A stretch of DNA of 64,000 bases from Bryobacteraceae bacterium. Lineage in GTDB: Bacteria; Acidobacteriota; Terriglobia; Bryobacterales; Bryobacteraceae. The DNA lies in the NCBI GenBank assembly GCA_030041495.1, contig JASHNT010000116.1:9998-73997 (forward strand). Reading direction: 5' to 3'. A program made the position numbers and the translations under genes. The notes under the pieces were generated by a model. It was given only the letters and a program-made list of their open reading frames with translations, ran no database searches and was not told the DNA's origin. This document shows, in pieces, positions 1,371-33,328 of the stretch (positions are counted from its first letter, which is position 1; each line of letters opens with the position of its first letter).

Positions 1371-1700
1371 AACTTCCCCCTTTTTCTCCGCCTCACCAGC
1401 ATAGGCGTGCGGCCTTGCCTTCAAGGGTCGAGAATGCGCTGCGAGTAAACCATCGAGCAGCGCATCGCGCAGACATCGCGCGCCCTTGACGGCATCGACC
1501 GCCCGCGAAAGACAACCCCTCTATCCCATTAAGAAGAAAAAGGGGGTCTGAAAGAAAAACGCGAACGCGCGCCCGGCTTGAAGCGGCGGGCGCCGAGCAA
1601 CTGAGGCTTGAAAATCGCACCAGCTTGTCGTAACCAATAGCAGCGACGCCGAACACAATAGCGGATGCAAATGCTGATAGCTTGTGGATTGGAGCCCTCA

Positions 1701-2339
1701 ATGCCGGATAAGTACAGAAACTTCGCTGAGCTCAGCAAGAATGAAGTTCGTGACAAGGACTTCGTGGTTCGCCATAGACTTCTGCCAGATAAGCCCGCTG
1801 TGATCGCGCCCCACGGCGGCGGAATTGAGCCAGGTACGTCTGAACTTGCGGAAGCGATAGCGCGAGACGATCTGTCCTTCTATGCCTTCGAAGGGAAAAA
1901 GGCACGCGGCAACGGCGAGTTGCATATCACAAGTGCCCGGTTTGATGAGGCGGAATGTCTGAAGCTCCTCGCGAGCTCCTCGACTTGCATCGCCTTACAT
2001 GGTGAGGACAGTGATGGCGAGGTCGTGTTCTTAGGTGGTCTCAATAATGTACTTGGTGCCAGCGTACGTGCTTGCCTGGAGAAGCGCGGGTTCAAGGTTG
2101 ACATCCATACAGATCCCGGGCTTCAAGGCACCGATCCGAAGAACATTTGTAACCGCGGAACCACTGGGCGCGGTGTTCAGCTCGAACTGAGCGAGGGATT
2201 GCGCCGGACATTTTTTAAGGGCCTCAAGCCAAAAAGTCAGCGTGAAACCAAAACGGATCGTTTCTGGCAATTCGTAGCCGCTCTGAGGGAAGCCATCCTC
2301 GAACACGATGCTTCTAAGCCTCCCCTGCCATCGGCGTAA
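1701..2339 (+). CDS. poly-gamma-glutamate hydrolase family protein (PghP-like / DUF867, phage-associated)
   Basis: ORF 1665..2339. The ATG at 1701 is preceded by GGAG 6 nt upstream. Recognised pattern: VIAPHGGGIEPGTSELAEAIA, LHITSARFDE, IALHGE, FLGGLN, NICNRGTTGRGVQLELSEGLR. Confidence 0.75.
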   Translation: MPDKYRNFAELSKNEVRDKDFVVRHRLLPDKPAVIAPHGGGIEPGTSELAEAIARDDLSFYAFEGKKARGNGELHITSARFDEAECLKLLASSSTCIALHGEDSDGEVVFLGGLNNVLGASVRACLEKRGFKVDIHTDPGLQGTDPKNICNRGTTGRGVQLELSEGLRRTFFKGLKPKSQRETKTDRFWQFVAALREAILEHDASKPPLPSA

Positions 2340-5680: not shown

Positions 5681-7477
5681 TTACTCACACGCCTCAGTAA
5701 TGCAAATCGACTCGAGCGTCCGGCCCATGGGCGGCACGGGGAGACCCTGGGCGGCCATAAGCTTGCGCAAGAGGGCGCCGGCTTCGGGATGGCCGATGGC
5801 GGATTGCACGCCTACGCGAACCAGGCCATCGGCGTAATCGACCGCTTCCCAAGTATGGATGGCGAGCTTGCCGCCGCGGTTATCGGTGTTGCCGTAATCG
5901 CGCGTGTCGAGCTTGGCTCCGTGATCGTAGAGCACCTGGATCACGTCGGTGCGGCCCTTGTGCGCGGCGCCATGCATGGCGGTGCGGCCCGTGTCGGCCT
6001 GGGCGTTGACGTCCGCGCCGAGGTCGATCAGCATTTTGACAGCTTCGAGAGTCGCTTGTGGCGACCATTCATAGGTGATGCCCTCGACCCAGCCGATTCC
6101 CGCGGCGACCTGCAGCGGAGTCACGTGCAGGACGGTATCGATGCTGGGGTCCGCGCCGTGCGCGAGCAGAAGCTTCATCAGCACGACGTCGCCGGATTGA
6201 GAGGCGCGCAGGAACGCAGTGGCTCCGTTCTCATCCAGCCACTGGTTGGTGAAGACCGTGCGGGTTTCGGTGGAATCCTTCATGCGGGCGTTCACGTCCG
6301 CGCCATGGTCCAGCAGCAGCTTGATGTAATCCAGGTGATCCATGTCCGGCTTGCGGACGGGATAGTCTCCGCTTTCGATGTTGCGGTTGTCGGTGGCGAG
6401 ATAGAGAGGAGTCCAGCCGCCCTTGTTGGGAAGATTGACGTTAGCGCCGTGGTCCTGGAGATAGGCGCCGAGCTGGTAGAAGCGGTTCTGCGTGGCGACC
6501 AGCAAGGGGCTCCAGCCATAACCGCTGGTCTGATTGATGTCGGCGCCGGCGGCGAGTAGGGCTTTGACGGAATCGAGATCGTTGGCGCGAACGGCGTAGA
6601 TCAGCGGTGTGAGCTGGCCACCGTCCTTGACGGCCTGGCGGTTTCGGCCGCCTCCGCCACCGAATCCGACGGCTGCCGCGGCATCGTCCGTCGGGTTGCC
6701 ATTCTCATCGACTGCACCGGCGAAATTCGCTCCGGCTGCACCGCGGCCCCGGCCTCGGGCTTGTCCTTGACCACCTTCTGGCTGCGCATTACCGGCATCG
6801 CGAAGGGCGCCGAGTCCCGGCGACGGCTGCCCCGCGGCAAGCGCCGCGCCCTGGCGGGCAACGGCCTTGCGAGGATCGTTGGATTTGCCAAGAGCGGGCC
6901 CGCGGCCACGCTCGGCAGGATCGGAGACGGCCTTGATGTCCGCACCGTGCTCGACCAGGAACGCGATTGCGTCGGCGTGGCCTTCATCGGCGGCCCACAT
7001 CAAGGGAGTGGTGCCACGGAGGGTTTCCTTGACGTTGACTTGAGCGCCATGATCGACCAGCACTCTGAGTGCGTCGACGTTGCCGGTGCGCGCGGCGGCC
7101 ATCAAGGGGCTGCGGCCTTCGGGGAGATGCTCATTGGCGTCGGCTCCGGCGTCGAGCAACGAGGCGATGATGCCGGCGTCGCCGTTGATGCAGGCGAGCC
7201 ACATCGGAGTCGAGCCTTCGCGGTTGGCGGCCTTGGGATTTGCGCCGGCCTTAAGGAGCAGATCGACCATCTCTTTGTCGGAATGAAACACGGCCCAGTG
7301 CAGAGCGGTAGCTCCGTCGTTCTGGGCAGCGTTCACGTCGGCGTGCTCGGCGATGAGCTTCTGGACGGCGGCTCTATCGCCGCGGGCGGCCGCGTCGGCC
7401 ACATCAGAGCTTTCCACGCCCCAGGCCATCAAGGCGAGAGAGAAGATCAAACCGCAAGTTGTGAGTCCGCGTCGCAT
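5681..7477 (-). CDS. secreted ankyrin-repeat protein
   Basis: ORF 5681..7501 has a TTG start. The ATG at 7477 has AGGAGA upstream. It has a signal-like N-terminus (MRRGLTTCGLIFSLALMAWG). There are many ANK units (GATALHWAV..., GSTPMWLAC..., GRSPLMAAAR..., GTTPLMWAADEGH...) and a central Gly/Arg-rich linker. Confidence 0.85.
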   Translation of the reverse strand: MRRGLTTCGLIFSLALMAWGVESSDVADAAARGDRAAVQKLIAEHADVNAAQNDGATALHWAVFHSDKEMVDLLLKAGANPKAANREGSTPMWLACINGDAGIIASLLDAGADANEHLPEGRSPLMAAARTGNVDALRVLVDHGAQVNVKETLRGTTPLMWAADEGHADAIAFLVEHGADIKAVSDPAERGRGPALGKSNDPRKAVARQGAALAAGQPSPGLGALRDAGNAQPEGGQGQARGRGRGAAGANFAGAVDENGNPTDDAAAAVGFGGGGGRNRQAVKDGGQLTPLIYAVRANDLDSVKALLAAGADINQTSGYGWSPLLVATQNRFYQLGAYLQDHGANVNLPNKGGWTPLYLATDNRNIESGDYPVRKPDMDHLDYIKLLLDHGADVNARMKDSTETRTVFTNQWLDENGATAFLRASQSGDVVLMKLLLAHGADPSIDTVLHVTPLQVAAGIGWVEGITYEWSPQATLEAVKMLIDLGADVNAQADTGRTAMHGAAHKGRTDVIQVLYDHGAKLDTRDYGNTDNRGGKLAIHTWEAVDYADGLVRVGVQSAIGHPEAGALLRKLMAAQGLPVPPMGRTLESICITEACE

Positions 7478-7508
7478 GGGGTCTCCTGTGGTGCGTGACA
7501 AGCAACGA

Positions 7509-8864
7509 TTAAACCAGGCCGGTGAGGCGGCCTTCGCTATCGCCGATCGAATCCTGATGGATGCCGTACAGATCCAGAATGCTCAGCAGCAGATTGCCGG
7601 TGGGAACCTGCTTCTGCGGATAGTGGAGATGGCGTCCGCCCTGGAGCTTGCCGTTCATGCCGCCCACCAGCACGTGCGGAACGTCGTAATGAACGTGCTG
7701 ATTGGAGTTGCCCATGTTGCTGCCGTAGAGCACCAGCGAGTGATCGAGCAGGGTGCCGTCGCCATCCTGGGTCTTGGAGAGCTTGTCGACCAGGTGCGCC
7801 AGCATCTTGATGTGATACTGGTTGATCTTGGACAGCAGGGCGATCTGGCGCGGATCTTCCCCGTGATGCGAGACGCCGTGGAATCCGGACGTCGGCGCTT
7901 CGCTTTCCGGATAGGTGCGGCCGGTGAGATCGCGCGCGAACAAGAGAGTGCCGACTCGCGTGATATCGGCCTGGAAGGCGAGAGCCATCAGGTCGAACTG
8001 GAGCTTGATGTGTTCGTCGAAGCTCTGCGGCACGCCGACCGGAACGGGCATATCGGTGGGCGCGACGGCGGAAGCCTTCATCGCGATTTGCAGGCGGCGC
8101 TCGATTTCGCGGACGTTTTCGGTGTAATTGTCGATACGGGCGCGGTCCGGAGCGCTGGATTCATTACGCAAACGGGTGAGGCTGCCCGAGAGCGAATCCA
8201 GGATGCTGCCGTCGCGCTGGCGGCGCTTGGCGCGCAGCTCCGGCGTGCTGCCGTCGCCGAACATGCGCTCGAAGACCACCTGCGGGTTCAGCTCCATCGG
8301 CAGAGGATCGGTGGGCGAGGCCCAGGAGATGGTGTTGGTGTAGGTGCAGCTATAGCCTTCGCCGCAGTTGCTGGAGTTGGCTCCCGGGTCTTCGACCGCG
8401 CACTGCATGGAGGGCATGAGATTGTCCTGGCCGATGCGCTGGGCGATGATCTGGTCGATGGTGGTGCCGCACTGAATGTCGGCGCCGGTGGTCTTCTTGG
8501 GCTTGACGGCGCACATGAAGGCGGCGGCGACCCAGTGGTCCGCGCCGGTGGCGCCGGGAGGCGGTTCGGCCGAACGGGAGTGCAGGCCGCTCAGGATGAC
8601 GGTCTGTTTGACGAACGGCTCGAGCGGCTTCCAGTTGAAGGGCAGAGCGGATTCGAGCGCGCCCTCCTTTTCCGGGACCCAGTAGCCCGGGGCTGCGCCG
8701 TGCGGGACGAAGCAGCCGACGAACCGGGGCTTGGGCGTGGCGGCGGTCTGCGCCAGGGCTGTCGCGGCCGGGATCATCGCATCGAGCAGAGGTAGAGCGA
8801 GGGTCGCAGAGGCGCTGCGCAGGACTCTGCGGCGGGACATGTGCTTTTTGGTGAGGAACGTCAT
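7509..8864 (-). CDS. DUF1552 domain protein with Tat-type signal
   Basis: 451 aa. Twin-arginine leader SRRRVLRSASATLALPLL. Family-typical segments include FVPHGAAPGYW, ITRVGTLLFARD and LVLYGSNMGNSNQHVHYDVPHVLVGG. AGGAGA lies 9 nt before the ATG. Confidence 0.8.
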   Translation of the reverse strand: MTFLTKKHMSRRRVLRSASATLALPLLDAMIPAATALAQTAATPKPRFVGCFVPHGAAPGYWVPEKEGALESALPFNWKPLEPFVKQTVILSGLHSRSAEPPPGATGADHWVAAAFMCAVKPKKTTGADIQCGTTIDQIIAQRIGQDNLMPSMQCAVEDPGANSSNCGEGYSCTYTNTISWASPTDPLPMELNPQVVFERMFGDGSTPELRAKRRQRDGSILDSLSGSLTRLRNESSAPDRARIDNYTENVREIERRLQIAMKASAVAPTDMPVPVGVPQSFDEHIKLQFDLMALAFQADITRVGTLLFARDLTGRTYPESEAPTSGFHGVSHHGEDPRQIALLSKINQYHIKMLAHLVDKLSKTQDGDGTLLDHSLVLYGSNMGNSNQHVHYDVPHVLVGGMNGKLQGGRHLHYPQKQVPTGNLLLSILDLYGIHQDSIGDSEGRLTGLV

Positions 8865-15821: not shown

Positions 15822-18800
15822 ATGAATCTGGGCGAGCAACTGAACGCGTACATCGCTGAACTGGAAAAACGCCTGCGCTGGAGCACGCTGCTCAAAGGCT
15901 TCGCGATCTTGACCGGCAGCGCGCTGCTTGGGACTCTGCTGCTGGTGACGATCGCGGACATGCGCGCGTTTTCCGCAGGCAGCGTGACGGCGTCGCGCTT
16001 CGTGCTGATTCTGATTCTAGCGATCGCGGCGGGGGCGGGGCTCGCGTGGCCGTTGCGGAGATTGACCCGGCGGTGGACGGTGGGCAAAGCGGAATCGGCG
16101 TTCCCGCAGTTCCAGCAACGCTTGATCACGTTCACCGAGCGGCAGGGGCAAGACCCGTTCATCGAATTGCTGGCTGGAGAGACGCTGGAAGTGGCGCAAT
16201 CGGCCGAGCCGAAGCAGATGGTGACGGACGGACGCTTGTGGGGCTCGCTTGCTACGGGTGTTATTTCGCTGGCGGCATTGATCTGGATTATCGCGGCGGG
16301 GCCGGGATTTCTGGGTTATGGAGCTTCCTTGTTGTGGACCGGGCCGCATGCGGATAAGCCGGCGATCTATCAACTGCGGGTGACTCCGGGCGACGCGGTG
16401 GTGCGGCGTCACGCGGATGAGTTAGTCTCGGCGCTGCCGACGGGGATGCAATCGCCGACGGTGAAGTTGCATGCGCGGTTCCAGAGCTCGGGGAAATGGG
16501 AAGAGATCGCGATGCTGCCGCAAGCGGCAGGAAGCTTCGCGGGAGGTTACCAATTCATATTCGCGGCGCTGCCGGAAAACGTGGAGTATTACGTGACCGC
16601 GGGCGCGATGACATCGCCGCACTACAACATTCGAGTGACGGATCTGCCGAGCGTGAAGCAGATTCGCGTCACCTATCATTACCCGGCGTGGACCGGATTG
16701 CCGAATGACACCGAGGAGCGTGGAGGCGATCTGCGCGCGGTGACCGGGACCCAAGCCGAGCTCGAGATTTCCACCGACCGTCCGCTTCAGGGCGGCGAGA
16801 TCCAGCTCGATAACGGGCAGAAAATCCAGCTTGCGACGGTGAAGCAGGACGGGCAGAACAACGTTTATCGCGGGACGCTGAAGATGGATCAGGACGGCGC
16901 CTATCACGTGGCGGGCATCGATGAGGGCCAGCCGGTGCGCGTGAGCGAAGACTTCTTTATCGAGGCTCGCAAAGCGGAGCCGCCGCAGATTGCGCTGACC
17001 CGTCCGCACGGCGATTATCACGCGTTGCCGATCGAAGAGGTGACGGTCGGCGTTAAGGCGGGGGACGAGTACGGCCTCAAGGGCGTGACGCTGCACTATT
17101 CGGTGAATGGCGGCCCGGAGACTGCTGTGGACTTGCTGCCACAGAAGGGCGAGAAGCAGGCGGACGGTTCGGCAACGCTGTCGCTCGAAAATTTCAAGCT
17201 GCAACCAGGCGACCTGGTAAGCCTGTACGCGACGGCCAAGGACGCCAACGCGGAATCGCACACCGACATGCTGTTTATCCAAGCCGATCCGTACGAGCGC
17301 CAGTTTACGCAGTCGCAGCAGGGTGGCGGCGGAGGCGGGGGTGGCGGCGGCGGAGGCGGCAACGAGGCCGCGCAGATCACGCAGCGCGAAAAAGAAATTA
17401 TTTCCCAGACGTTCAAGCAGCAGAACGATAAGAATTCGACTGCGCAACAGGCCGCGGAGATTTCGAAATTGCTTTCGCAATCGCAGGCGACGCTACGGGA
17501 TCAGTCGATGACGCTTTCGGGACGTCTCGAGGCTCGCGAGCTGACCGACGAGGTGAAGGCGATCAGCGACTTCGAAAAGGATATGGTCGCGGCGGCGCAA
17601 GTCATGGAGCCGGCGGCCAAGCAACTAGAGCAACAGAAGTGGAAAGACGCGATTCCGAACGAGCAAAAGGCTCTGCAATATCTGCAGCGCGCGGAGGCGA
17701 CGTACCGCGATATTCAGGTGGCGTTCGGAGCGCGCGGAGGCGGAGGAGGAGGCGGTGGAGGCGGCGCGGCTCGCGACTTGGCGGCGCTGTTCGACCTGGA
17801 GCTCGACACCCAGAAGAATCAGTATGAGACGCAGCAGAATTCCGCCACCACCGAGGAACAGAGGCAGCAGCAGATCGACGATGCGCTGAAAAAGCTGGAT
17901 GAGCTGGCCAAGCGCGAAGAGGCGCTCGCGCAGCAGCAGCGCAACGGCCAGGAGCAGACGGCGGAGCAGAAGTACCAACAGGAGATGCTCGAAAGGGAAG
18001 CGCAGCAGCTCCAGCAGCAGATGGCGGAGCAGCTTGGGCAGCAGGGCTCATCGAGTTCCTCTTCAAGCAGTTCGTCTTCGAGCAGCGCTTCGGCGAGCAG
18101 TTCTTCTTCAAACGGTCGCGGGGGACAAGGCGGCTCGCAGAGCAGCGCGAGCTCGCCGGAGTCCCGTCAACAAGCCCAGCAGCAGGCGCTCGACCGGCTG
18201 CGGCAGGCGGTCGACGACATGAAGCGCGCGACCCAGAACGGAAGCACGGCGGATTCGCGGCGCGCGGCGGACCGGTTGCGCGATGCGATGGATAAACTGG
18301 GGCAGACGCAATCGCAGGACGCGTCGGGGCAGATTGGCGCGATGGCCCAGACCGCGGGGCAGTTGGCGGAGCGTCAAAAGCAGACCGCCGACCAGGTGCG
18401 CGGAATCATCCAGCAGCAAAATGCGGCTCGGGCTGCGGGCAAGCAGCCGGAGTATCCTTCCTCGCAACAGATCGACAAGATGGTGGAGGATCGTCAGCAG
18501 GTCAGCGACGATCTGGACCGCTTGACGCAAAGGATCCGGGATGAGGCTCGCGCGCTGGCCACGACGCAGCCGGCGGCCTCTTCGAAGCTGCGCGGCGCGC
18601 TGCAGACGATGGACGATAACCAGCTTGGTAGCCGCGTGCAGCACAGCTCCGACGCCTTGGTTACGGGAGGGTTTTCGGATCAATCGGAATCGGCGATGAC
18701 CAGCGATTTGCAAAAGCTGAGCCAGCAGCTCACGGATGCATCCCGGGCGATGGGCAGTGCGCAGTCGAGCGATAAAGACGCGCAGCTCAATAGTGCGATG

Positions 18801-19517
18801 GATAATCTGTCGCGGCTGCGCGATCAGCTCGACGCGCTGGGGCGAGGCAACAATCCGCAGGCGGGCCAAGGCCAACAGGGGCAAGGCCGCGGACAGCAAC
18901 AAGGCCAAGGCCAGGGGCAAGGGCAGGGCCGGGGCGGACAGCAGGCTCAAAACGGGCAGGGCGGCCAGGGCGGATATCAGCAGAGCCAGCTTGGTCAGCA
19001 GGGCAATCCGCAGTCCGGGAATCGCGGAAACGCGCAAGGCACGACAGGCGATCGCATCGCGGGCGAAGTGAACGGCCCGGGCGGCGGTCCGCGTGGTCAG
19101 GTCTATAACAATTACGATACCGGCGGCAACTCACGTCCCGGTCAATCGGCGGAAGCGCGTCAGGGGCCGACTCCGCAGGACACGCAGAAGGAGATCGATC
19201 AGGGCTTGAACCTGCTCAACCAGATGCGTGCGGCCGTGCAGGATTCGCCCGAGGCGAAGCAGCAGTTGCAGGCGCTAATCGATGAGATGCGCAATCTCGA
19301 TCCGAAGCGGTTCCCCGGTAATCAGGGATTGATGGAGCAGATGCACCAGCAATTGCTGAGCAACGTGGATGCGCTGGAGCTGCAGTTGCGGCGGGAACTC
19401 GATCAGAATCAGGGCGGCATGATCCGCAATACCGATCCGGCGAAAGTACCAGCGGGTTACAAGGATTCGGTAGCGGATTATTTCCGCAAACTTTCCGGCA
19501 GCGATTCGACGAAATAG
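15822..19517 (+). CDS. large membrane-anchored protein with a Gln/Gly/Ser-rich coiled-coil and low-complexity C-terminal half (reminiscent of DUF4175-type proteins)
   Basis: 1231 aa. Three N-terminal hydrophobic helices and beta-rich middle modules. Then G13 (nt about 17322-17360), a second G-run (about 17735-17765), an S-run (about 18045-18110) and QGQG repeats (about 18860-18990). Codon periodicity is clean, whereas the antisense ORFs are Arg/Leu junk. Confidence 0.8.
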   Translation: MNLGEQLNAYIAELEKRLRWSTLLKGFAILTGSALLGTLLLVTIADMRAFSAGSVTASRFVLILILAIAAGAGLAWPLRRLTRRWTVGKAESAFPQFQQRLITFTERQGQDPFIELLAGETLEVAQSAEPKQMVTDGRLWGSLATGVISLAALIWIIAAGPGFLGYGASLLWTGPHADKPAIYQLRVTPGDAVVRRHADELVSALPTGMQSPTVKLHARFQSSGKWEEIAMLPQAAGSFAGGYQFIFAALPENVEYYVTAGAMTSPHYNIRVTDLPSVKQIRVTYHYPAWTGLPNDTEERGGDLRAVTGTQAELEISTDRPLQGGEIQLDNGQKIQLATVKQDGQNNVYRGTLKMDQDGAYHVAGIDEGQPVRVSEDFFIEARKAEPPQIALTRPHGDYHALPIEEVTVGVKAGDEYGLKGVTLHYSVNGGPETAVDLLPQKGEKQADGSATLSLENFKLQPGDLVSLYATAKDANAESHTDMLFIQADPYERQFTQSQQGGGGGGGGGGGGGNEAAQITQREKEIISQTFKQQNDKNSTAQQAAEISKLLSQSQATLRDQSMTLSGRLEARELTDEVKAISDFEKDMVAAAQVMEPAAKQLEQQKWKDAIPNEQKALQYLQRAEATYRDIQVAFGARGGGGGGGGGGAARDLAALFDLELDTQKNQYETQQNSATTEEQRQQQIDDALKKLDELAKREEALAQQQRNGQEQTAEQKYQQEMLEREAQQLQQQMAEQLGQQGSSSSSSSSSSSSSASASSSSSNGRGGQGGSQSSASSPESRQQAQQQALDRLRQAVDDMKRATQNGSTADSRRAADRLRDAMDKLGQTQSQDASGQIGAMAQTAGQLAERQKQTADQVRGIIQQQNAARAAGKQPEYPSSQQIDKMVEDRQQVSDDLDRLTQRIRDEARALATTQPAASSKLRGALQTMDDNQLGSRVQHSSDALVTGGFSDQSESAMTSDLQKLSQQLTDASRAMGSAQSSDKDAQLNSAMDNLSRLRDQLDALGRGNNPQAGQGQQGQGRGQQQGQGQGQGQGRGGQQAQNGQGGQGGYQQSQLGQQGNPQSGNRGNAQGTTGDRIAGEVNGPGGGPRGQVYNNYDTGGNSRPGQSAEARQGPTPQDTQKEIDQGLNLLNQMRAAVQDSPEAKQQLQALIDEMRNLDPKRFPGNQGLMEQMHQQLLSNVDALELQLRRELDQNQGGMIRNTDPAKVPAGYKDSVADYFRKLSGSDSTK

Positions 19518-29193: not shown

Positions 29194-29268
29194 ATCCGGA
29201 AATCCGCACACCAAATCGTAACTTTTTTTCGGTATACTGCCGTGAGTTTTCCTTTTTGGAGGGATTTT

Positions 29269-30675
29269 ATGGCAGTGAAAAAGCGTGCATCCCGTGGTCC
29301 GGCCGCGGCTCCGCCGCCGGACGAAAATACTCAACCCATTCCAACTTCCGGCCCGCAGTTTGCCGAACCCGCGCCCACTCCGGACCCCACGCACTTCACC
29401 GTCAAGCATGGCTCCGATGCCGCTGCCTACAAGATTCTGGACCGCGAAAAGGCGACCCTCCAGCCGCGTCCGTTTCCGGTCGTCGACCAAACCGAACCTA
29501 CGGTGACGCTGGGAGATGCAATCGGCCCGGAGGGGGCGTCCATCGAGAATTCGATCACCGCCGCCGATCAAATCGTCTTCCACGCGCTGGGCGACACGGG
29601 CAATACCAAGGGTCCGCGTGATGAGGGCCTGGTCGCCGATAAGATGGTCAGCGATTTCAGCGAGACGGATTCGCGGCAGGTCCCGTCTTTCTGCTATCAC
29701 CTGGGCGACGTAGTTTATAGTTTCGGCGAAGCCGAGTATTACTACGACCAGTTTTACGATCCTTTTCGCGATTACCCTGCGCCGATTTTCGCCATTGCGG
29801 GTAATCACGACGGAATGGTTGCGCCGAACTCGACGACGCCCACCCTGGACGCGTTCGTCGAAAATTTCTGCACGGCGGGCCAGCCCTCGCATCGCACGCC
29901 GGAAGCTGGCGGCCTGGCCCGCACCGCGCAGGTCCAGCCCGCCGTGTACTTCACGCTGGAGGCTCCGTTCGTGAGAATTCTGGGGCTGTACAGCAACTGC
30001 CTGGAGGACCCCGGCATCATTTCGGATCAGGGCGGCAAGTACCCGTATTTGGGCCAGACGCAGATTCAATATTTGACTGCGGCCCTTACTCGCATCAAGC
30101 AGCAGAAATTCAAGGGCGCGATTCTGATTGCCGTACACCATCCGCCCTACGTCGCTCAGATTGCCGAAGCCGAATCCGGTGCTCCGGCGGCCAGCTCCCG
30201 CAGGCGCTCATCGGCCGAGCCCAAGACCCAGAACGCCGGGCGCCATGGCGGCTCGCCGGCGATGCTTGAGGAAATCGACACGGTGTGCGAATCGGTGGGC
30301 ATCTGGCCGCACGCGATCCTCTCCGGCCACGCGCACAATTACCAGCGCTTTACCCGCTCCAAGGACGGCCGCCAGACGCCGTTCATTGTCGCGGGGAACG
30401 GTGGCCACGCGGTGTTGCATCTGACCAAGAAGGGCACTCCGGCTTTGCGTGCCCCCAGCCCTCAAGCGGCTCTAAGCGACGGCAGCGACAGCGTCATCTT
30501 CGAGAATTACGACGACCAGGACTTCGGCTACCTCCGTATCCTGGTCAACGCGAAGCAGCTCCGCATCGAATACCACCCGGCCGCCGATGGCGAGGCGGCC
30601 AAAACACCCGACGACGCCGTGACGGTCGATTTGCAGAAATACCAACTGGTCCACTTCCAGGCCGCGGGGGCGTAA
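29269..30675 (+). CDS. metallophosphoesterase (calcineurin-like)
   Basis: ORF 29242..30675. The ATG at 29269 has GGAGGG 5 nt upstream. Motifs: ALGDTGN, HLGDVVY, AGNHD, AVHHPP, SGHAHNYQR. Confidence 0.85.
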   Translation: MAVKKRASRGPAAAPPPDENTQPIPTSGPQFAEPAPTPDPTHFTVKHGSDAAAYKILDREKATLQPRPFPVVDQTEPTVTLGDAIGPEGASIENSITAADQIVFHALGDTGNTKGPRDEGLVADKMVSDFSETDSRQVPSFCYHLGDVVYSFGEAEYYYDQFYDPFRDYPAPIFAIAGNHDGMVAPNSTTPTLDAFVENFCTAGQPSHRTPEAGGLARTAQVQPAVYFTLEAPFVRILGLYSNCLEDPGIISDQGGKYPYLGQTQIQYLTAALTRIKQQKFKGAILIAVHHPPYVAQIAEAESGAPAASSRRRSSAEPKTQNAGRHGGSPAMLEEIDTVCESVGIWPHAILSGHAHNYQRFTRSKDGRQTPFIVAGNGGHAVLHLTKKGTPALRAPSPQAALSDGSDSVIFENYDDQDFGYLRILVNAKQLRIEYHPAADGEAAKTPDDAVTVDLQKYQLVHFQAAGA

Positions 30676-30713
30676 GCAGGCCGATTGTCTACAGTTCGGC
30701 GCGGGCCTCGAGT

Positions 30714-31353
30714 TCACCGAGCCAGACATTGAAAGACCGGGCACTGCTCTCGAATCCGGTTTATTCCCATTGCTCGCGCGGCGTCCTCGCCGTGGCGGAC
30801 TTTTTGGTATGCCGGGAAGATTCTCAGCACCTGCTTAGATGGGGCGGTTCGCGGTGAATCGTTGATATCTTCCGGAGTTGCGAACCCGGCGCGGATCTTC
30901 TCAAACCTGGCTGCGAGTTCGGCGCGTCCGATGGCACTTCCGAGGGCGGCGCAGTCGCTGAAGAGCAGTCCCTCGAATTCGTGCATGACCACGAAAGGGA
31001 TGAACCACCTGGCATCGCCGGTCGCCTCCGTTACGTGCTTGCGCATGGCGTCCTCAACGCACGCGGGCGGTGCTGATACTGTTTGCTGCCTCCCGGCCCG
31101 GCCATGCTTTGCCACGGGTTGCCGGTAATCCGTAGAAGTCTACCATCGTGGAGATGACACAGCCCCTATCCCGCTTCAGGTCGCTGACGATTTCCTTCAG
31201 GGCGGAACCCCAAGAACAGATCCCAGATTTCCTGGAGCCGACGATGCGGGCGTCAACGCGATCATAGCCCACCGTTGTCAGATGCTCAGGAAGAATCCCG
31301 CGGACAAAACGAACCTCTGTCGGACCCTCCGCGTGCACCACGAGGCGGGCCAT
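30714..31353 (-). pseudogene. DUF4276 family (TOPRIM-like) protein, split by a frameshift into ORFs 31054..31353 and 30714..31115
   Basis: N-part: MARLVVHAEGPTEVRFVRGILPEHL...STMVDFYGLPATRGKAWPG. C-part, in another frame: ...ACVEDAMRKHVTEATGDARWFIPFVVMHEFEGLLFSD...FATPEDINDSPRTAPSKQVL...IREQCPVFQ. Together they give the full DUF4276 pattern as I remember it. The frames switch within about 31050-31070. Confidence 0.7.
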
Positions 31354-31359
31354 CGATGC

Positions 31360-32439
31360 TCAGGCCGGAACCGGCTGATCGCCGAATTCATTCTTTTCCC
31401 ACAACTGACCGAGACTGTAGTCCTCCAGCCATTCCTTAAAAGGCTCGGGCTCCAGTCGTCTGAGCGTGGTCGCGTCGTTGACGAGATCCGCGACCAATAC
31501 TTCCTTAGGCTCGAAGTAATCGAGCAAGGTCGGAGACTGGGTGCAGAGAATGATTTGGGTGCTCCGCGAAGCTTCTCGCACAAGCGCGGCCAGTATCGCC
31601 ATTGCGTAGGGGTGCAGGCCTAGCTCAGGCTCATCGATCAGGATGACCGACGGGAGATAACCCTGCGGCTGAAGCAGCAAAGTCGCGAGCATGATGAACC
31701 TTAGCGTGCCGTCGGACAGCGAGGAGACGCCCAAAGGATAGTTCGATCGCCTGTGATTCCAGTTGAGGCTGATGAATTCGGCCTGCTTTCCGTCCGGTTC
31801 GAGGCTGAAGCTGAGAAAGAACGGAGCCACTCGCCTGACTTCCCGAACGATGGAATCAAAATTCTCCCTGAAGTTCTCGTGCAGGTTGTAAAGAAAGGCA
31901 GGCAGGTTCGACCCGTCCGGCCTGAGGGGACGGCCATCCTCCACTCGCGCTGTTTTTCGAATTGGTGAGGAGGAGTCAGTGTCGTCCAAATGGTAAACCC
32001 AGCAGCGCCACAAGGCCGACTTAATCCAGCTTTCAAGCGAATGGCTGCCGCTGATACCGGCCTCCCGCCCACCTGCTTGGGGCTCAAGCGGGTCGGTGAT
32101 TCCATTGAGACATGTGGTCTCACCCTCCGGGAGCAACTGGCCGACTTCGCTTGGCCGGAGCGTCAGCCTGTAGCTCAACTTCCCGGACTGGAAGCCGAGA
32201 TTTGGGAATCTTGTGCTTTTTTCGCCGAAGTGCAATAGCCTGTCTGCGAACCGGGCGTTTTTACCGTAAGCTTCTAGCCGCCCCTCCCGAATCGCGTTCA
32301 GAAATGCGAACGCCTCGATGAAGTTCGACTTCCCGGACCCGTTCGCGCCGATTACAACATTCACTCGCTCCAGGGGCAGTTTCTCAATTGAGGCAATGCT
32401 CTTGAAGCCTTGAATTGTGATTGAGTCAAGTCCCTGCAT
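31360..32439 (-). CDS. ABC/SMC-like ATPase (AAA_21/AAA_15 type), partner of DUF4276
   Basis: 359 aa. Walker A GANGSGKSN, signature-like LSDGTLRF, Walker B plus D-loop VILIDEPELGLHP, and a Q/H region ILCTQSP. It ends 7 nt before the DUF4276 start. Confidence 0.85.
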   Translation of the reverse strand: MQGLDSITIQGFKSIASIEKLPLERVNVVIGANGSGKSNFIEAFAFLNAIREGRLEAYGKNARFADRLLHFGEKSTRFPNLGFQSGKLSYRLTLRPSEVGQLLPEGETTCLNGITDPLEPQAGGREAGISGSHSLESWIKSALWRCWVYHLDDTDSSSPIRKTARVEDGRPLRPDGSNLPAFLYNLHENFRENFDSIVREVRRVAPFFLSFSLEPDGKQAEFISLNWNHRRSNYPLGVSSLSDGTLRFIMLATLLLQPQGYLPSVILIDEPELGLHPYAMAILAALVREASRSTQIILCTQSPTLLDYFEPKEVLVADLVNDATTLRRLEPEPFKEWLEDYSLGQLWEKNEFGDQPVPA

Positions 32440-32491
32440 GGCTCTGCCCCATCATAACCAATCGCGGAATCCCTATATAATCAATAATCGA

Positions 32492-33328
32492 GTGGACATC
32501 TACGACGAAATCGTCCGTCTGCGCAGGCTGGGTCAAAAGTGCGCCCTGGCGACCATCGTGCAGAAGCGGGGGTCGATTCCGAGCTTTGAGTCGGCCAAGC
32601 TGCTGGTGCGCGAAGACGGCTCCATGATGGGCACGGTGGGCGGCGGGTGCGTGGAAGCCGAGGTGTGGAACGCCGCGCGCGAAGTCATCGACACCGAAAA
32701 ACCCAAGAATCTCTCCTTCAGCTTGGGCCAGGACGCCGCGTACGACGAGGGGCTGATTTGCGGAGGACAATTGAACATCTTCGTCGAGCCGGTGGTTCCC
32801 CAGCCGCAAGCCTTCATCTTCGGCGGCGGTCACGTCTCGAAGAGCCTTTCGAAAGTCGCGTCGATGGCAGGATTCGCCACAGTCATCGTCGATAACCGCG
32901 AGGCCTTCGCCAATCCACAGCGCTTCCCGGAGGCTGAAGCCACTTACGCGGAAGAGTACGAAGAGGTTTTCCCCAAGCTGAACATTACTTCTTCGGACTA
33001 CATCATTATCGTTACGCGCGGGCATCGCGACGATATGCGCGTGCTGAGGTGGGCGGTGACCACGCCGGCGCGTTATGTGGCTATGATCGGCAGCAAGCGC
33101 AAGACGATCTCGGTGGTGCACGAGCTCGAAAAAGAGGGCATCTCGCGCGACGCCTTCGAGCATGTGTTCGCCCCGATGGGTCTGGAGATCGGCGCGGAAA
33201 GCCCGGAGGAGATCGCGGTCTCGGTGGTGGCGGAAATGATTGCGGTGCGGCGCGCGCCGGTCAGCGACTGGCGATCGGTTTCGAAATCCATCTTTGCCAG
33301 CGAACGCCTCAAAGCTCTGCTGAAGTGA
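32492..33328 (+). CDS. XdhC/CoxI family molybdoenzyme maturation factor
   Basis: ORF 32417..33328. I prefer the GTG at 32492 (VDIYDEIVRLRRLGQKCALATIVQKRGSIP...GTVGGGCVE...IFGGGHVS), which matches the usual XdhC N-terminus. TATAAT lies at 32476-32481. ATG 32438 is an alternative start. Confidence 0.75.
   Translation: MDIYDEIVRLRRLGQKCALATIVQKRGSIPSFESAKLLVREDGSMMGTVGGGCVEAEVWNAAREVIDTEKPKNLSFSLGQDAAYDEGLICGGQLNIFVEPVVPQPQAFIFGGGHVSKSLSKVASMAGFATVIVDNREAFANPQRFPEAEATYAEEYEEVFPKLNITSSDYIIIVTRGHRDDMRVLRWAVTTPARYVAMIGSKRKTISVVHELEKEGISRDAFEHVFAPMGLEIGAESPEEIAVSVVAEMIAVRRAPVSDWRSVSKSIFASERLKALLK

Follow-up and report, generated by a model that had tools for sequence, protein, structure and literature searches.

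The element described here is a two-gene cassette, an ATP-binding cassette (ABC) ATPase gene followed by a DUF4276 gene, in a 64,000-nucleotide stretch of contig JASHNT010000116.1 from a Bryobacteraceae bacterium (assembly GCA_030041495.1; this whole stretch is referred to as the window, and positions are given in its numbering unless another record is named). The locus is very probably a decaying chromosomal copy of HEC-01, a two-gene candidate anti-phage cassette. HEC-01 (Hma-embedded candidate 01) was described by Payne et al. in 2024 as an ABC ATPase with a TOPRIM partner (10.1101/2024.01.29.577857), and by its models the window pair belongs to this family as an incomplete member, of a known and already catalogued kind. 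As read from the DNA, two independent 1-nt insertions broke the second gene (HEC-01B) in the window lineage, and the window copy is probably a dead and otherwise ordinary member of the family.

The assignment is carried by profile matches to both genes. The ATPase matched the PADLOC model HEC-01A (PDLC04175) at E = 3.5e-116 and 386 bits, residues 3-356 corresponding to model positions 5-362 of 363, and its scores against the other PADLOC models (AriA, mad3, Old, AbiLi) were far below this. The two fragments of the DUF4276 gene matched HEC-01B (PDLC04188) at 1.9e-16 and 1.9e-37, over positions 12-105 and 103-217 of the 230-position model, and Pfam DUF4276 was divided in the same way, with profile positions 1-72 on the first fragment and 75-186 on the second. 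Two-gene architecture, gene order, tight coupling and the combination of an ABC ATPase with a DUF4276/TOPRIM-like partner are all shared with HEC-01; the window copy differs in that its HEC-01B reads as a pseudogene with two frameshifts, and in that it lies between housekeeping genes, not inside Hma or a restriction system. As both fragments match HEC-01B, surveys based on hidden Markov models (HMMs) would count this locus as a complete HEC-01.

A preliminary description of the window, made from the sequence alone, had placed the pair within the OLD, PARIS and Gabija theme and suggested that it could be a further member of it. The placement is borne out by the HEC-01A and HEC-01B matches, but the family was not unrecognised, having been described in 2024 and tested against phages twice, once with a negative and once with a positive outcome. 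The TOPRIM-likeness of the partner, which was also proposed, was a sound inference that the literature already contains (10.1101/2024.01.29.577857, PMC12065111). What is new concerns the locus: the two DUF4276 insertions, lesions shared between strains, intact pairs in syntenic relatives, a mild composition difference and the absence of a defence island.

Two frameshifts in the DUF4276 gene

The DUF4276 gene is present as two open-reading frame (ORF) pieces, 31054-31353 (99 aa) and, in the next frame, 30714-31115 (133 aa). The preliminary description had joined these pieces into one gene, and all the motifs it quoted are present, as is a short (6 nt) spacer to the ATPase; it did not include the second break near 30731-30734, beyond which the gene continues to 30689. 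We located the lesions against intact DUF4276 partners of 227-230 aa from other contigs (Table 1). At the first site, removal of one base restores ...ANSISTA(R)CVEDAM..., to be compared with ...KARCVEDAI... of an intact homologue. At the second, following ...EQCPVF, the C-terminus NVWLGELEARAEL and its stop codon resume in the +1 frame, where homologues read CPHF-DG-WLNQLESRL. The repaired 220-aa reading aligns over 97-100% of its length to intact proteins of 223-233 aa, with a best identity of 60%, and retains all of the strictly invariant residues (E9, E13, D72, WPGR, HEFEGLLFSDC, TPE, DS and PS).

Both frameshifts are common to the window strain and a second strain, L001, represented by an independent assembly (Logan SRR21679883, 4.2 kb) whose DNA is 99.69% identical to the window. 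The two differ by 12 single nucleotide polymorphisms (SNPs) and one intergenic indel, have an identical reading-frame structure, and show no indel within 30689-31353. The occurrence of both frameshifts in a second strain, and the absence of a long homopolymer at either site, show them to be real; that they are sequencing or assembly artefacts of a gene intact in the organism is extremely improbable, even though many of the related records are metagenome assemblies, where indel errors occur.

On this evidence the DUF4276 gene reads as a pseudogene. In the modelled fold the conserved acidic motifs EGxTE and VDxY are on strands 1-3, and the first insertion cuts these strands off from strand 4 and from HEFEGLLFSDC, which is invariant, so that neither fragment would be able to form the domain alone. 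Production of an active nuclease is thus most improbable, and the system itself would most probably be non-functional here. The cassette could still work if the ribosome restored the frame at both sites, through programmed +1 frameshifting or transcriptional slippage, or if the fragments formed a split TOPRIM, and this agrees with the survival of every family-invariant residue in the repaired reading, with the intact ATPase ORF, with the identical arrangement kept by two strains, and with the second site (TTT-C), at which tRNA-Phe could in principle re-pair in +1. We nevertheless regard it as very unlikely: a slippery sequence is missing from the first site (CGC-G-TGC), the 68 intact homologues, three of them at the same chromosomal site, all do without a frameshift, the first break would split one small domain between strands 3 and 4, and the other damaged copies that we found are broken at different places, as random decay predicts.

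Table 1 Features of the HEC-01 locus, with positions in the window
Feature	Position	Strand	Basis
HEC-01A, SMC/Rad50-like ABC ATPase, intact, 359 aa	31360-32439	-	ORF, Pfam, PADLOC, Foldseek
Spacer, 6 nt, ATPase stop TGA (31362-31360) to DUF4276 ATG (31353-31351)	31354-31359	-	operon-like tight junction
HEC-01B / DUF4276 (TOPRIM-like), predicted pseudogene, 665 nt = 220 codons + stop + 2 extra bases	30689-31353	-	Pfam, PADLOC, alignment
Frameshift 1, 1-nt insertion in ...GCC CGC G TGC...	31062-31068	-	tblastn against intact homologues, three-frame translation
Frameshift 2, 1-nt insertion in TTTC	30731-30734	-	three-frame translation, alignment
Ancestral DUF4276 stop TAG (TAA in strain L001)	30689-30691	-	three-frame translation, strain comparison
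ATPase/xdhC divergent intergenic region, 52 bp	32440-32491	.	sequence and L169 spacer comparison

The ATPase and the relation of the pair to known systems

The ATPase motifs listed in the preliminary description (GANGSGKSN, LSDGTLRF and ILIDEPELGLHP) were all recovered in the 359-aa reading frame at 31360-32439 on the reverse strand, in which Walker A (GANGSGKS) occupies residues 31-38, the signature (LSDGT) 241-245, the Walker B/D-loop 266-277 and TQS 300-302. Walker A, the ABC signature and the Walker B/D-loop were invariant in 21 homologues. Profile searches agreed with the families that had been proposed, the ATPase matching AAA_21 (5e-30) and AAA_15 (2e-15), as well as SMC_N, and the partner matching DUF4276. 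An AlphaFold2 (AF2) model of the ATPase, with a pLDDT (predicted local distance difference test) score of 79, had its best Foldseek matches in an SMC head (4i99, 8e-14), Rad50, RecN and PtuA of Septu/retron systems; these matches spanned E-values of ~1e-12 to 1e-14 with template modelling (TM) scores of about 0.5-0.57, and a profile search of PDB sequences gave weak local matches only, to SMC3, OLD 6p74, PtuA, GajA and AriA. Motifs and head fold place the 359-aa protein among the SMC/Rad50-like ABC ATPases, and by its model it amounts to a minimal ABC head of SMC-like type that lacks a coiled coil. Exact-sequence look-ups of the window ATPase and the window XdhC matched no record.

Four characterised groups were compared with the pair. 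PARIS (AriA and AriB) is alike in that one operon holds an ATPase gene and, separate from it, a gene for a stand-alone TOPRIM-type effector, DUF4276 is among the partner domains in the AAA15/21 ATPase tree of the PARIS paper (PMC11464382), and the AriA model (PDLC02980) matches the C-terminal half of the window ATPase at 1.2e-30. However, the window partner is DUF4276 whereas AriB is DUF4435, no AriB or DUF4435 match was found for it, and the window ATPase has 359 aa against 464 aa in the AriA chain in the PDB, to which its sequence match is local (2e-4); given the partial AriA match beside the far stronger HEC-01A match, and a partner without DUF4435/AriB, PARIS identity was ruled out.

The OLD family (P2 Old, class 2 BpOLD, Gabija GajA and the retron Eco8 effector) likewise pairs a TOPRIM-type nuclease with an AAA_15/AAA_21 ABC ATPase, the window ATPase has weak sequence matches to OLD 6p74, GajA and Eco8, and the DUF4276 EGxTE after strand 1 aligns with EGKTE of Old, at a non-significant hhalign score. 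In OLD and GajA, unlike in the window, both domains are fused in one polypeptide. PF20469 (OLD-like_TOPRIM), which P2 Old itself matches at 1.2e-17, is absent from both DUF4276 fragments, and the DxD of OLD is down to a single Asp in the window DUF4276 subfamily. OLD-family identity was rejected on the separate genes and the unmatched PF20469.

MADS is alike in that Mad3 is the best NCBIfam match of the window ATPase, that PADLOC mad3 matches it at 4.6e-28 and that Mad4 is reported as a DUF4276 homologue (PMC12065111). Against this, the ATPase scores 104 bits with NF047739, whose equivalog cutoff is 420 bits, the DUF4276 protein has no NCBIfam match at E <= 1 and in PADLOC matches HEC-01 models only, and neither a methyltransferase within ~20 kb on either side nor another mad gene nearby was found; the score and the missing methyltransferase neighbour rule out MADS identity. 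PtuA of Septu/retron systems provides the closest solved ATPase structures after the SMC head (Foldseek E ~2e-12, TM ~0.45-0.5), but its partner is the HNH nuclease PtuB and it is larger (PDB chains of ~550 aa).

By analogy with OLD, Gabija and PARIS, intact HEC-01 members may work through an ATPase oligomer which senses an infection cue; ATP binding or hydrolysis would then license or release a TOPRIM-like, metal-dependent nuclease, and this would cut nucleic acid, either DNA or, as in PARIS, tRNA, and block phage growth.

Genomic site, synteny and composition

Syntenic relatives of the locus were found through the closest intact DUF4276 (L169), and then in L170 and L171. All three have SLT, CsgG, AsmA, MobA and XdhC genes on one side of an ATPase with an intact DUF4276, and MauE, GHMP kinase and DsbH on the other, which is the site of the window cassette. 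Because the intact pair occurs at the same xdhC-mauE site in these relatives, the cassette is an old resident: it has been between xdhC and mauE since before the split from at least three relatives with an intact pair. Three intact copies and one decayed copy at this site are a natural comparison for the evolution and decay of a cassette in place, and intact orthologues such as those in L169-L171 are better subjects for tests of HEC-01 mechanism than the window copy.

The cassette had been described as wedged between a metallophosphoesterase gene and xdhC, which is literally true in the window; in L169-L171 the pair occupies the site without the metallophosphoesterase (29242-30675, + strand), and DUF4276 directly adjoins MauE. 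Homologues of the metallophosphoesterase elsewhere share <=70% identity and no synteny, and among 80 metagenome loci with relatives of it none has MauE, XdhC or the cassette, a result which is uninformative as a test for an empty site. The gene is a lineage-specific difference, either gained in the window lineage or lost in the relatives.

Protein identities between the window and L169 ranged from 94% for XdhC through 87% for GHMP kinase, 86% for CsgG, 82% for MauE, 79% for DsbH, 77% for AsmA and 75% for MobA, to 60% for the repaired DUF4276 and 57% for the ATPase. At the DNA level the ends of the ATPase gene are 78-79% identical to L169, similar to the flanks (72-89% for the ends and flanking genes together), whereas the middle of the gene (~32310-31760, residues ~43-228) shares only 37-56%. 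The ATPase thus contains a fast-evolving insert; hypervariable although the gene is inherited vertically, it may be a sensing surface.

The preliminary description also took the cassette for a lower-GC islet with different codons. A dip in GC (guanine plus cytosine) content does exist and is mild, 58.1% against 61.7% (30714-32439, 0.5805; window mean 0.6173, standard deviation 0.0236; 7.5th percentile), with GC at third codon positions (GC3) of 0.69 compared with 0.76 +/- 0.05, but the ATPase ranks 14th of 35 genes in codon-usage distance and is no outlier. The intact cassette of L169 has an equal dip of 3 points (0.591 vs 0.621), so that the low GC is a property of the cassette and not a sign of recent transfer; with the mild GC and codon deviation, the same dip in L169 and a site common to four lineages, recent horizontal acquisition was ruled out.

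Co-location with defence islands, which the preliminary description had named as a check, was not found, since the genes from ~9 to 49 kb of the window have, by Pfam annotation, housekeeping functions only, and a defence-island context was ruled out. The neighbours comprise PSD-domain proteins, MacB/FtsX, a TonB-dependent receptor, solute-binding proteins, a LysR-family/PBP-like regulator and TauE, then a DsbH-like thioredoxin, MauE, the metallophosphoesterase, XdhC, a MobA-like transferase and an AsmA-like protein, and finally CsgG, a Ser/Thr kinase, SLT, a Kdo hydroxylase, LptD and an M24 peptidase. Scans of the window found no tRNA gene and no Rfam match.

Pairing across genomes and plasmids

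The pairing itself is conserved, as had been anticipated. We fetched 80 genome loci through the ATPase, 77 of which were assessable, from Bryobacterales and other Acidobacteriota, Chloroflexota, Planctomycetota, Proteobacteria, Cyanobacteria, Xenorhabdus, Vibrio and Fictibacillus. An intact DUF4276 lies directly downstream of the ATPase in 68 of the 77. Over 67 intact loci the intergenic distance has a median of -1 nt, almost all values falling between -8 and +16, and in 23 of these loci the genes share an ATGA overlap. The remaining loci consist of three with a frame-split DUF4276, three with a truncated gene or premature stop, and three without a clear partner, two of these being orphan ATPases. 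About one in eight loci (~12%) therefore has a damaged or missing DUF4276 beside a full-length ATPase, in a sample which, being selected by the ATPase, cannot show asymmetry of loss; censuses of candidate systems may consequently be inflated.

The damaged copies elsewhere are struck in catalytic motifs. In L015 (7110-7136) the codon for Glu-9 of DUF4276 is changed to TAG, and independent frameshifts or deletions in or beside VDYYGLP are found in L039 (~7490-7510), L053 (~7330-7350) and L055 (~7290-7300). The codons GAC-TAC-TAC may be a hotspot of slippage, or selection may favour nuclease-dead alleles. That the HEC-01 nuclease partner is lost repeatedly while the ATPase persists is a possibility that we consider unlikely; if true, the effector would be costly (autoimmune), HEC-01A may act without its partner, and the surface that senses phage would be the fast-evolving insert of an ATPase whose chromosomal site is fixed. 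The two orphan HEC-01A-type ATPases, neither with a DUF4276 downstream, are followed by a GyrB/ParE-like gene (L070, 5998-7140) and by a large convergent protease-like gene (L079, ~6000-7125).

The 138 nearest-neighbour ORFs of these loci fell into ~280 different Pfam families, none of which occurred more than three times and most of which were housekeeping; a few carried restriction-modification domains (Methylase_S, ResIII, Eco57I and N6_Mtase, two each) or integrase domains. The ATPase-DUF4276 pair was present on 13 of 72,556 plasmids, with no matches among 50,697 phage records, and a pattern-based method found no relative of the pair in IMG/VR. On the Aeromonas media IncU plasmid pMC64A (L168, 109993-116042 of the record), a distant HEC-01-like pair with 38% identity to P0121, an intact DUF4276 homologue, stands between a WYL protein and SNF2 helicase on one side and a DNA methyltransferase on the other, flanked by insertion sequence (IS) elements, which is the 'Hma-embedded' arrangement. 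The second context examined, a small Acinetobacter plasmid, has the pair next to VapBC and tet(39).

Candidate anti-phage function, the proposed TOPRIM fold and constraint on the ATPase

Several points weigh against reading the locus as a decaying copy of an anti-phage cassette, and they concern the function of the family, the state of the window copy, the fold of DUF4276 and the drift of the ATPase. The anti-phage function of HEC-01 is not settled, as the published phage tests conflict: in the original study HEC-01 gave no protection against the phages tested in E. coli MG1655 deltaRM (10.1101/2024.01.29.577857), whereas a cold-seep study reported protection of E. coli B by one HEC-01 representative, effective against at least one of the phages T4, T5 and T7 (10.1101/2024.09.26.614923). 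Non-function of the window copy, in turn, is inferred from its DNA, and the catalytic-motif residues are all still present in the repaired DUF4276 reading.

The pair might not be primarily anti-phage, but a selfish toxin-antitoxin-like or addiction module, or one with a role in DNA repair or housekeeping, and be kept for something other than immunity. The subfamily does stand alone among unrelated housekeeping genes, outside defence islands, and lies beside VapBC on the small plasmid, and both the negative outcome of the original test and the ~12% of loci with a damaged or missing nuclease, as a toxic gene might show, are in keeping with such a role. The family was nevertheless discovered inside Hma restriction-like systems (10.1101/2024.01.29.577857), an arrangement repeated on pMC64A, and the nearest characterised ATPases (AriA, Mad3, PtuA, Old and GajA) are all defence proteins. 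We therefore give this alternative a low probability, and retain a decayed candidate anti-phage cassette as the preferred reading.

The fold of DUF4276 was modelled on the closest intact homologue, P0121 (AF2, pLDDT 92.6). The model has a strand at 3-8, a helix at 11-27, a strand at 32-37, a helix at 48-61, a strand at 65-72, a helix at 96-115 and a strand at ~121-126, followed by further helices, an order which corresponds to the beta-alpha-beta-alpha-beta-alpha-beta layout of TOPRIM, with an invariant Glu predicted right after strand 1 and an invariant Asp at the end of strand 3. E9 and E13 of EGxTE are invariant in the alignment, and the invariant HEFE after strand 4 may provide further acidic ligands. 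Set against the TOPRIM assignment, this subfamily keeps just one Asp of the canonical DxD (V-D72-[FY]-Y), with Met or Thr at the first DxD position. Foldseek searches of the model against PDB and BFVD gave nothing significant, the best PDB match being a lipase at E = 0.004; the matches were of a generic alpha/beta kind, with no TOPRIM protein among the top 50 listed, and an HMM search of DUF4276 against PDB sequences had no match. For a profile comparison we built a P2-Old-like TOPRIM alignment, in which a word-indexed search gave 5 fragments and was followed by an exhaustive representative search. Against it hhalign returned P = 0.013 for DUF4276 and P = 0.0068 for a broader DUF4276 alignment, with a non-significant probability of 3-6%. 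The register was as expected despite the low score, HVEGqTE standing opposite LvEGKTE of P2 Old and VDyY opposite the DLD of Old, with D72 aligned to the second Asp of the latter. The TOPRIM assignment thus rests on two published structural analyses and not on our own fold tests: the predicted structure of HEC-01B was found to be similar to the BpOLD TOPRIM, with a metal-binding site in common (10.1101/2024.01.29.577857), and the Menshen paper placed DUF4276 and RloB in the Toprim superfamily, with Mad4 as a DUF4276 homologue (PMC12065111).

The ATPase may be drifting as well. Between the window and L001, all five ATPase SNPs are nonsynonymous (A16S, G53E, R63G, P79L and F194L), compared with two synonymous and two nonsynonymous in the flanking genes, although five are too few for a test of nonsynonymous to synonymous rates (dN/dS). 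Of 142 columns with >=95% conservation among 119 homologues, 15 deviate in the window ATPase, compared with a mean of 2 and a maximum of 9 in the others, but a divergence-controlled trend predicts, by extrapolation, ~9 deviations, which largely explains the observed number. The repaired DUF4276 has 12 deviations at conserved columns against ~5.5 predicted, and for both genes the window lineage is the longer branch relative to the syntenic relative. The ATPase data are compatible with relaxed constraint after the effector broke, and are no proof of it.

Other features of the window

The intergenic region between the divergent ATPase and xdhC genes contains the TATAAT (32476-32481) that had been noted beside the ATPase start. 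The hexamer is present, but on the + strand, which is that of xdhC and not of the ATPase, and a sigma-70 scan of 30400-32700 found no promoter-like site. It lies inside a GATTATATA motif, which is accompanied by a GTTATGATGG motif; both are conserved in L169, and any function of theirs would be inferred. The XdhC-ATPase spacer of L169 (6516-6872 of that record) is 357 bp long compared with 52 bp in the window, and holds a second copy of the xdhC 5' end and a GATTGATTATATATG motif, flanking a ~290-bp insert. In strain L001 a 1-nt deletion (window 32457) falls directly before the TATGATGG part of the second intergenic motif.

Elsewhere in the window, a 1231-aa ORF (15822-19517, + strand) has a normal GC3 of 0.76 and no Pfam match at E <= 1e-5. 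Positions 1-2700 form a real low-GC zone in which GC falls to ~0.54. The gene at 1665-2339 (+ strand) matches Gamma_PGA_hydro (PF05908, 2.8e-62), has a GC3 of 0.57 and is the strongest codon-usage outlier of the 35 genes, and recent acquisition of DNA is more plausible for this zone than for the cassette.

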